Assembly: GCA_963762565.1 (NCBI GenBank)
Contig: CAVXLD010000003.1
Coordinates: forward strand, 320,001 to 384,000
DNA length: 64,000 bases
Direction: 5' to 3'
Source of the DNA: an uncultured Verrucomicrobiae bacterium
Lineage (GTDB): Bacteria; Verrucomicrobiota; Verrucomicrobiia; Chthoniobacterales; JAFAMB01
How positions within the stretch are numbered: position 1 is the first letter of the stretch; each line of letters starts with the position of its first letter. A model generated the notes under the pieces. It was not told the origin of the DNA. It made no database searches and worked only from the letters and a program-made list of their open reading frames with translations. Shown in pieces: positions 1-57,211 of the stretch. Made by a program: the position numbers and the translations under genes.

Positions 1-581
1 CCCTTTTGCTGAGCCAGGGCTACCAGAGCTGGAGCAATTGGTGGCGGCCCAAAGCTTTTGAGCACTTAAGCAAGGGGGTGGCGCCTTGGATTGTAAAACA
101 TCTTGGTCGCTGGGTTGGGATATTACGCGAGCTAGACCAGCAAATTGAGCAAGCCAAGGCAGAGCTAACCAAGCAGTACCAAGGCCCACGGCCAAAGGGG
201 ATGGGAGCTCCCAGCTTGGCGCAATTGAATGCTGAAGTACTGGATTGGAATCTTTACTCAACTGAACGCAAGATCGGCTGCTTAGCCGGGATGGTGCCCA
301 GTGAATGGAGCAGCGGAGAGAGCCAACGCTTGGGTGCAATCACCAAAGTGGGACTACCGGCTCTGCGGCGCATCATCACCGAGATGGTCTGGCGGATGAT
401 CCTCTTCCAGCCCGAGTATAAAGCGGTGCAAAAATGGCGTGAGCTACTGGAGGGCTCTAACCGAGGACTGAAGAAAAAAGCCGTGGTGGCCATCGGCCGG
501 CAACTGATCGTCGATATCTGGCGGCTACAAACCGGTCGTATTACTGCCCAGCAATTGGGTCTCATCATGATCGAGGGCTAA
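1..581 (+). CDS. IS110-family (DEDD/Transposase_20) transposase, 5'-truncated by the window edge
   Basis: C-terminal IS110/IS116 domain motifs: GMGAPSLAQLNAE, AGMVPSEWSSG (catalytic Ser motif), G.ITKVG...LRR, KKKAVVAIGRQLIVDIWR. Confidence 0.9.
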   Translation, partial: LLLSQGYQSWSNWWRPKAFEHLSKGVAPWIVKHLGRWVGILRELDQQIEQAKAELTKQYQGPRPKGMGAPSLAQLNAEVLDWNLYSTERKIGCLAGMVPSEWSSGESQRLGAITKVGLPALRRIITEMVWRMILFQPEYKAVQKWRELLEGSNRGLKKKAVVAIGRQLIVDIWRLQTGRITAQQLGLIMIEG

Positions 582-1018
582 AACCATTTTAGAAGTGACC
601 CGAAGACTCGGGTTTTAACTTGGGGCTCTGCCCCAAACCCCGGTTCGGGGGAAACAGGAGCAAGCTGGCGCCTCTAAAGAGGCCCCATGGTTAAGGGAGA
701 AGCTGACACAGCACTAGACTAAACATTTTAACTCTGGACTTTGGAACGGCGCGCGCTCGTGCTCGCCCCTGGGCTTTAAAAGCCCGTTGGTAGATTGGGC
801 GCGCTCGTTCCTCTTGAGCGATGCGTATAGAGCATCTTGCGCTGTCAAACCCTGACAGGCCGGATAGGAGGCTGCCTTGTCCCAATCGAGCTCGGAGACA
901 TGAGCCACAAGAGGAAACGTACCAACCGTCGCAAACCGGCTCGATCTCTGAACTAAAAATTTTGGCAACTACGTTGCTCTACAAAAGATGACAAACCGCT
1001 AAAAACACGCTGGGTAGC
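582..1018 (+). ncRNA. Putative bridge/seek RNA region of the IS110 element
   Basis: Downstream non-coding region with stem-loops at about 600-612, 620-636, 638-650, 670-683, 771-785 and 842-858, plus short matches to the flanking REP target; RNA boundaries unknown. Confidence 0.5.
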
Positions 1019-1034
1019 TTGACAACACCATAGG

Positions 1035-1245
1035 GGGGCGAGGCTCCCGAATGACCCTACGATCTTCGCGGAAGGTACGAAGGTTTCCCCTAGAAGACGT
1101 GTAACCGGGACGATAAGCGTGCCGAGCCGTGTCCCAGCGCTGGGTCCCGGCTCGGCCGATTATCGTCCTAGCTGTGCCTCTCTTCTGGCGCTGGCATTTA
1201 ATCCTTCGCGAAAATCGCAAGGTCTTTCGGGAGCCTCGCCCCACC
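1035..1245. repeat. REPIN-like inverted pair GGGGCGAGGCTCCCGAA ... TTCGGGAGCCTCGCCCCACC
   Basis: Inverted arms at about 1035-1051 and 1226-1245; related single arms at about 14549 and 57089. Confidence 0.8.
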
Positions 1246-57056: not shown

Positions 57057-57211
57057 AGGATGGAGGATGAAGGTAGGGGAGGCGGATTGGTAGCGAGGCT
57101 CCCGATTGCACGGAGTAGAGATCCCGGAATGACCCAGGAGGTTGAGGTCCGAAATGCGCCGAGCCGTTGGGGAGATGGAATAATGGAGGATTGGAGTAAT
57201 GGAGGATTTGG

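Follow-up and report, generated by a model that had tools for sequence, protein, structure and literature searches.

The first 1034 bases of the window, the 64,000-nucleotide stretch analysed here (bases 320001-384000 of contig 3 of a 6.1-Mb source genome), cover the right-hand two thirds of an IS110-family element, 1.6 kb long and of the IS1111 type, and very probably this is an active, or recently active, element in which a DEDD/serine recombinase works with a 3′ bridge (seek) RNA that guides insertion into the arm of a REP/REPIN-like repeat. We observed the anatomy of the element, four insertions at the same site, covariation between guides and targets, a conserved RNA fold and, in the modelled protein, the fold of a bridge recombinase. 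A first-pass annotation of this DNA had proposed a programmable recombinase aimed at the REP family of this genome; the covariation and the four same-site insertions support that proposal, in which the activity of the RNA is what we infer.

Sequences matching window positions 1-1051 occur four times in the genome, with 100% identity over 1,049-1,051 bases and an intact 370-codon frame in each copy. Alignment of the four copies and their flanks gave an element of about 1,608 bases, with its left tip (ATGCCATGGTGTTGTCAGG..) 573 bases before the window and its right tip (..GCTTGACAACACCATAGG) at window position 1034. The window contains the C-terminal 192 residues of the recombinase (3-581, + strand, stop codon at 579-581), the gene for which starts about 525 bases before the window. 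The gene is followed by a 3′ non-coding region (582-1034, + strand) that constitutes the right end of the IS and finishes with ..CACCATAGG at 1034; this boundary was placed from the identity of the four copies, which ends after 1034 and the repeat arm that they share, and the right end is unchanged in homologues despite other flanks. The non-coding stretch of roughly 450 nt reported after the transposase was thus found, with 453 bases downstream of the gene vs 48 upstream, and its downstream position is, as had been pointed out, the arrangement of the IS1111 group. The right subterminal inverted repeat TGACAACACCAT (1020-1031, + strand) and its left counterpart ATGGTGTTGTCA are perfect inverses of each other over 12 bp, and they are set 5 (left) and 3 (right) bases from the IS tips, in keeping with the 7-17 bp repeats and short extensions of IS1111 elements. 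TTGACA (1019-1024) and CCATAGG (1028-1034) adjoin GGGGCGAGGCTCCCGAA (1035-1051), and TTGGTAGCGAGGCTCCCG was located at 57087, both as first described.

Several further features of the element were recorded. Directly after the left inverted repeat and ahead of the transposase start, to the left of the window (L001:940-975), lies a perfect 10-bp hairpin, GTCAGGCTGC..GCAGCCTGAC, which homologues keep with altered sequence, e.g. GTCAGGTTGCTG..CAGCAACCTGAC. The small adjacent hairpins GGGGCTCTGCCCC and CCCCGGTTCGGGG occupy window positions 622-650, about 40 bases past the stop codon; they are kept in relatives of 61-89% identity and missing in the 51% group, and could serve as a signal for processing or termination ahead of the putative guide RNA. 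In run X1, the summed contig depth within L001:927-2534 was about 105-110 over the IS vs 17-18 on the flanks, a hint of copies or strains beyond the four in the assembly, such depth not being equivalent to copy number. In the copy on contig 9 (L003), the first 8 bases of the IS, ATGCCATG, are swapped for AGCT, so that the bases read by a candidate donor guide (see below) are missing, and this copy is probably immobile.

The right flank of the IS is an arm of a dispersed inverted repeat. Across the whole genome, the core of this repeat has 284 exact copies and 521 arms occur with at most two mismatches, the arm types TTGGTGGGGCGAGG and TTGGTAGGGCGAGG accounting for 266 and 251 arms, respectively; 195 convergent arm pairs were found at a median spacing of 186 bases, 163 of them of one type. 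The repeat accordingly has the hallmarks of REP/REPIN elements, namely short, conserved, multi-copy extragenic inverted repeats in convergent pairs. Exact TTGGTGGGGCGAG sites number 208 in the genome, and four of these are occupied by the IS. All four copies lie in arms of the one repeat family, with ..TTGGTAG at the left and GGGGCGAGGCTCCC.. at the right of the element, and their flanks are unrelated beyond the repeat arm. The first-pass annotation had made its proposal depend on a TTGGT-like REP start at the left junction and on other copies lying in related sites; TTGGTAG is present at the left junction, outside the window, in 4/4 genomic copies, and the insertion sites of 4/4 copies are in arms of the same family. 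Within the window, the right part of the interrupted arm, GGGGCGAGGCTCCCGAA (1035-1051, + strand), begins with the bases paired by the right guide (1035-1042), and the intact partner arm, TTGGTGGGGCGAGGCTCCCGAA (1226-1247, - strand), which is of the G type and forms the other end of the same REP/REPIN-like element, was found where it had been placed on the other strand. That the guide RNA matches the repeat arm explains the confinement of the IS to one repeat family in this genome.

The interrupted repeat (1035-1247) is a unit of about 210 bp with outer arms of 22 nt, a variable interior and, at approximately 1111-1157, a conserved inner palindrome, GCCGAGCC..GGCTCGGC, which gave sub-threshold matches to miRNA models of Rfam; the four occupied units have the arms and the inner palindrome in common and not the intervening sequence. 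In the flanks of the IS copies on contigs 3 and 4, arrays of 7-base words (GGTGATT, GGTGAGA and their complements) adjoin the repeat arms. The genome contains 12 matches to PF01797 (Y1 transposase), and none of the 10 checked for a RAYT next to the repeat has an arm within 700 bases.

Relatives of the element came from metagenomes and genomes of soil Verrucomicrobiota. Among species genomes, 11 Verrucomicrobiota loci and one assembly labelled Solirubrobacterales were detected, at 61-83% protein identity, and metagenome contigs, scanned with a protein alignment, contributed 94 relatives; 80 of these, at 51-89% identity, were kept. A 401-genome sample of the phylum contained, apart from the four copies of this genome itself, distant relatives only (31-36% identity, 7 genomes). 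Relatives share the 3′ non-coding region and both ends, and their flanks differ. Of the 92 loci examined, 56 lay on contigs that include the complete non-coding region and the right end, and 40 of those also had the left flank; in the other 36, the contig broke off too early or the locus was one of the 51%-identity group, which has different anchors and was analysed separately. L088, which ends at the IS tip, was left out, giving 55 loci for the right guide. Raw mutual information between RNA columns and flanks was swamped by shared ancestry and was replaced by position-by-position pairing counts.

The three strings on which the first-pass annotation was built, CTCGCCCCT (762-770), the hairpin GGGCTTTAAAAGCCC (771-785) and TTGGTAG (787-793), were located as given, and its reading of the two outer segments as target guides is upheld by their covariation with the flanks and by their unpaired state in the consensus fold. 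The right target guide, 5′-CUCGCCCC-3′ (762-769, + strand), pairs with the + strand at 1035-1042. Over the 55 loci, positions 769 down to 762 are complementary to flank positions +1 to +8 in 50-54 loci each (91-98%), with several pair types per position; at 765, for example, G-C occurs 33 times, A-T 17, C-G twice and T-A once. The borders are abrupt, Watson-Crick pairing being found in 0/56 loci at 770 and at 771, in 1/55 at 761 and in 1/55 at 760. The complement of the right half of the target had been given as 762-770; the claim holds for the 8 nt of 762-769 and fails for base 770, which faces the last IS base and makes no Watson-Crick pair with it in 56 loci.

The covariation comprises 13 distinct right guides and 17 distinct guide/flank pairs, and 10 of the 13 guides have a perfect 8/8 flank. 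The mean match was 7.06/8, compared with 5.14 (sd 0.29) when flanks were permuted among the 17 pairs, and 0/10,000 permutations scored as high. Misses were counted in: seven of the 17 pairs are mismatched, six by one or two positions (L067 and L070, 6/8; L007, L013/L083, L014/L016 and L109, 7/8) and L091 entirely (0/8), where the right end was mis-detected by the search pattern and the locus was kept in the count. On the scale of a single sequence, matches of 6-7 nt appeared in 36% and 13% of shuffles in a comparable donor-site test; since short matches of this kind are common by chance, the weight rests on the covariation across homologues. The same correspondence was found in more distant relatives. 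The 51%-identity group has the guide GCATCCCT, and the flank of L097 reads ..CCATAGG|AGGGATGC; at 31-36% identity, guide and flank match at 10/10 positions in L018 (CTCCCCTCCT/AGGAGGGGAG), 8/8 in L020 (TGACCCCT/AGGGGTCA) and 8/8 in L026, and the four-copy element of G054 has AAGCCCCT/AGGGGCTT.

The notion that every guide class targets a palindromic repeat was rejected, as a partner arm was present in just 14 of the 44 loci with enough flank. In loci of the AGAGTGGG guide class (L063, L064, L068, L069, L013 and others), the insertion site is G-rich and the left flank is nearly identical over 16 bases across contigs (GGGTGGGGGAGGGAAG); no inverted partner arm was detected for the target of this class, which is a repeated target of another kind.

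The left target guide, UUGGUAG (787-793, + strand), is a copy of the left flank. The next two bases, AU (794-795), repeat IS bases 1 and 2 and are reminiscent of handshake bases. In the 40 loci with a left flank, positions 789-793 are the same as the last five flank bases in 38-40 loci, and the variable position of the guide follows the flank (T/T in 29 and A/A in 9, with two misses). The identity continues into the IS, with 794 equal to IS base 1 in 34/40 loci and 795 equal to IS base 2 in 39/40, and stops there, 796-797 matching in 0-1/40. The left guide first proposed at 787-793 is right in that it equals the left flank, and wrong as to its end, since the guide runs to 795. Locus L058 shows three joint changes (TAC-AG), having TTTTACAGAT beside a flank that ends in CCCTACAG.

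The two guides overlap the dinucleotide at the junctions. The left flank ends in AG in 40/40 loci, and the right flank starts with AG in 38 loci and with GG in 16. Own-type elements have GG at the right junction and CC in the right guide (15 loci and the three other genome copies). The four IS copies of the genome have partner arms of G, A, G and G type; as these are mostly G and arm pairs are mostly of one type, the preferred target is the G-type arm, TTGGT^GGGGCGAG, in which GG meets the AG of the left guide with one mismatch, and the AG at the left junction consequently comes from the IS. L086, which combines an own-type guide with an A-type flank, has AG at the right junction, and at L007 a neighbouring uninterrupted repeat gives the target as TGGT-AG-GGCGAAG, with AG at both junctions. 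In about 19 independent own-type insertions, the donor core (AG) is always by the left end and the target core (GG) by the right flank, a constancy expected from exchange at one fixed phosphodiester without heteroduplex. The sequences of these junctions suggest that the dinucleotide of the donor always remains at the left end and that of the target at the right flank.

The guides are embedded in a structure that was predicted from consensus folds. The conserved core of the putative bridge/seek RNA (746-915, + strand) consists of a target-binding domain (746-808) and a multiloop domain (809-915). In the consensus fold of 42 distinct sequences, both guides are unpaired and lie in an internal loop between a basal helix (746-759/796-808) and an apical hairpin (771-785, + strand), which L034 keeps with both sides changed (GAGC..GCTC). 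The second domain is closed by a helix between 809-816 and 908-915 (+ strand), five positions of which are changed on both sides in the 51%-identity group, and holds three hairpins. Helix cells were paired in 99% of cases vs 39-59% when the partners were slid. Among the 42 closest sequences, two pairs are changed on both sides, both in the basal helix; with five sequences of the 51%-identity group added, 11 of 36 pairs are compensatory, five of them in the closing helix. Several of the invariant G-U pairs fit the + strand only, as the opposite strand would have A-C mismatches in their place, and solely a + strand RNA gives guides that pair to the bottom left and the top right, the definition of bridge-RNA guides in PMC11208160. 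The sequence of the window by itself folds at -75.8 kcal/mol (z = -3.4), and in this fold the guides touch through five weak pairs that are lost in the consensus. The first-pass annotation would have been contradicted by guide segments that are base-paired or not conserved; they are unpaired in the consensus fold and follow the flanks.

The RNA would be made, probably from the transposase transcript, and would bind the recombinase. No RNA run containing the sequence was found among the public runs. A promoter and terminator scan of positions 400-1300 returned no promoter-like site and one terminator-like site, on the - strand, which is no more than expected. TTGACA was considered as an evident promoter and rejected, since it belongs to the 12-bp subterminal inverted repeat and the scan returned no promoter-like site; a promoter at the circle junction was likewise rejected in our own reading, TTGACA being followed 17 bases on by ATGGTG, which is unlike a -10 hexamer. 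Neither an empty site nor a circle junction was present in the contigs of 4 DNA runs, in which no contig joins the two flanks across the IS and several stop at the repeat. Rfam 15 contained no matching family and gave only sub-threshold chance matches (miRNA models, and Ysr251 with 17 bits vs 100).

The proposed mechanism runs as follows. A bridge (seek) RNA of about 170 nt (approximately 746-915, + strand) would be derived from the 3′ non-coding region and would present two target guides in an internal loop around the hairpin. Positions 762-769 would pair with the + strand at GGGGCGAG, right of the crossover, and 787-793 with the - strand opposite TTGGT(AG), left of the crossover, so that both guides together would direct insertion between T and G of TTGGT^GGGGCGAG, at the outer end of an arm repeated hundreds of times. 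The multiloop domain would probably hold the joined ends of the IS itself through 832-837 and 864-870. The AG by the left end would travel with the IS, and the dinucleotide by the right end would stay with the target.

The donor guides and the details of strand exchange are the parts that we infer. When the non-coding region was compared with the modelled joined ends, just two matches covering AG were found, GCATCT (832-837) and ATAGGAG (864-870). The candidate donor guide GCAUCU (832-837, + strand) is the reverse complement of AG and the first four IS bases, ATGC, and the candidate AUAGGAG (864-870, + strand) is identical to the last five IS bases followed by AG; both assignments are tentative. 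All 56 rows of the alignment contain ATAGGAG, that of L007 with an extra base, and base 837 is T or A. A handshake pair after 864-870 was tried and rejected: in most loci base 871 is the same as flank base 3, but in the AGAGTGGG class it does not track that base, L053 excepted.

The recombinase has 368 aa, and the full protein matched PF02371 (Transposase_20, IS116/IS110/IS902 family) with 46.4 bits against a cut-off of 21.3, the part inside the window scoring 47.7 bits; PF01548 (DEDD_Tnp_IS110; 28.3 bits vs 29) and NF033542 (IS110 family RNA-guided transposase; 134.7 vs 140) were both just under their cut-offs. Residues D33, E81 and D121 are invariant in 28 homologues, and GMVPSEWSSG at 272-281 fits the catalytic-serine motif G--P----S/T-G described in PMC11187229, with G272 and P275 invariant and S279 and G281 at least 90% conserved in the same set. 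A sequence and profile search of solved structures with the recombinase gave no match. A model built from the 28 homologues (pLDDT 85.2) gave as its best Foldseek match the IS621 recombinase-bridge RNA complex 8wt9_A (E = 5e-12, 365 aligned columns), and the top 10 matches were IS621 and then ISCro4 complexes (E 5e-12 to 4e-10, TM 0.53-0.65, about 360 columns), those of IS621 having a TM of 0.54-0.65. The modelled protein thus has the bridge-recombinase fold, and its link to the IS621 protein comes from the fold search alone, as the sequence searches gave nothing.

Three other explanations were weighed against this one. Rather unlikely, in our estimate, is a narrower role in which the RNA selects the target only, as a seekRNA in the strict sense, while the protein reads the IS ends through the 12-bp repeats and 832-837 and 864-870 are structural. 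In its favour, long subterminal repeats are a feature of IS1111 elements and are described as missing in IS110-type elements (PMC11208160); the two short donor matches occurred together by chance in 95 of 2,000 shuffles (about 5%), both candidates are partly inside predicted hairpins that never vary (pairing with 820-824 is predicted for 832-837), an internal mismatch persists in the distant relatives, and in L058 the left end is changed (ATGG) and the 832-836 motif is unchanged, hence not compensated. Against this stands the behaviour of the candidates in the distant relatives, where 864-870 becomes AUAGCAG in 5/5 loci and the right end, in the 3/5 in which it could be identified, changes from CATAGG to CATAGC, and where IS base 4 and the first base of 832-837 correspond in 5/5 loci (U with A in four, G with C in L024). 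The order of the donor candidates and their overlap on AG also mirror the target loop, and Durrant et al. (PMC11208160) describe donor-binding nucleotides in the multiloop of many IS1111 elements.

That the non-coding region is instead a structured 3′ UTR or terminator, with the protein reading the sequence or the hairpin of the repeat and the complementarity being coincidental or a captured piece of repeat, is scarcely credible. A 7-9 nt match in a single sequence is weak, hairpins of the target DNA can add specificity in a related element (bioRxiv 10.64898/2026.03.19.712850), and the public runs offered no RNA run with this sequence, all of which this explanation would accommodate; it is at odds with 13 guides following 13 flanks with sharp 8-nt edges, and with the finding that 30/44 loci with enough flank, from several guide classes, have no detectable partner arm. 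Moreover, the two segments, split by a hairpin, are respectively complementary to the target and identical to it, and they are therefore not a copy of the repeat. Improbable too, if less so, is a real system that is dead in this genome, its four copies being relics spread by duplication and not by RNA-guided insertion. The contig 9 copy, with 8 left-end bases replaced by 4, and the lack of empty sites and circle junctions in the contigs speak for it, whereas the unrelated flanks beyond the arm, the complete identity and open frames of the copies, and about 15 further own-type insertions in different metagenome contexts speak against it. We retain the RNA-guided, active or recently active IS1111-type element as the most probable explanation.

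The mechanism itself has been known since 2024, and the element is a well-supported further example of it, not a new mechanism. IS1111-type elements with a downstream seekRNA, among them ISPa11 on the Pseudomonas REP, were described in that year (Siddiquee et al., PMC11187229), and a bridge RNA could be predicted for 93% of IS1111 elements, its donor domain often being a multiloop (PMC11208160). Among known elements ISPa11 comes closest: it is likewise of the IS1111 type, targets a REP (PMC11187229) and has a seekRNA. With ISPa11, ISEc11, ISKpn4 and ISPst6 our element shares a predicted DEDD recombinase, the G--P----S/T-G motif, subterminal inverted repeats and a long downstream non-coding region, and with the IS1111 seekRNAs described in the same paper a top-strand match 5′ of the bottom-strand match and the overlap of the two in the target (PMC11187229). 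It differs from the elements presented there in its host, an uncultured soil member of the Verrucomicrobiota, and in its protein, the 368 aa of which lie outside the 330-350 aa stated for IS1111 transposases (PMC11187229); the target, moreover, is the outer end of a large (about 230-bp) REPIN-like element, and the RNA is here a prediction from sequence. ISPpu9 and ISPpu10 of Pseudomonas putida are also IS110-family elements inserted into REPs at AG (PMC12288879, which reports the AG dinucleotide for ISPpu9; bioRxiv 10.64898/2026.03.19.712850), but, as characterized in these sources, they belong to the IS110 group, are without subterminal repeats, have the bridge RNA upstream and come from another phylum. 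The literature that we found on IS110 elements and bridge RNAs contained no mention of Verrucomicrobi.

Comparison with IS621 revealed two guides per loop (candidate guides in the donor loop) on opposite strands that overlap on the core dinucleotide, and two extra bases after one guide that match the other DNA, the handshake, as described for that element (PMC11208160, PMC11208158), together with a similar predicted protein fold. In contrast to IS621, the RNA would be encoded at the right end, past the gene, its putative donor domain takes the form of a multiloop and not of an internal loop, long subterminal repeats are present, a one-base difference separates the donor core (AG) from that of the preferred target (GG), and the proteins are about 16% identical in the structural alignment, with no match at the sequence level. 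There is a slightly less than even chance that the IS1111 arrangement here is the IS621 system on the opposite DNA strand and not a true reversal of guide order. Read on the - strand, the core may be CT, the 8-nt guide may be the left target guide and come first, the 5-7-nt guide may be the right one, followed by AU (794-795) at the place of the handshake guide, and the donor guides may stand in the same order, which would resemble IS621 with its left-then-right guides. In IS621 the donor core joins the right target (dT9-tA10, PMC11208158), as it would here on the - strand. If the fixed crossover is true, the first core base need not match, and the crossover position of the IS1111 group would be settled.

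The element adds a divergent clade of bridge recombinases from soil Verrucomicrobiota, with an RNA code that natural sequences spell out directly: at least 13 right guides, addressed to different repeated targets, occur on a single conserved scaffold, and relatives with as little as about 31% protein identity obey the same rule. Its added value lies in an unusually clean natural covariation and a natural core mismatch, which provide a data set for defining how long the guides are, which bases form the handshake and how much variation the core tolerates in the IS1111 group, which has been studied less, and it is a candidate orthologue for programmable recombination. In the biology of this genome, one mobile element uses another family of selfish repeats as its landing pad.
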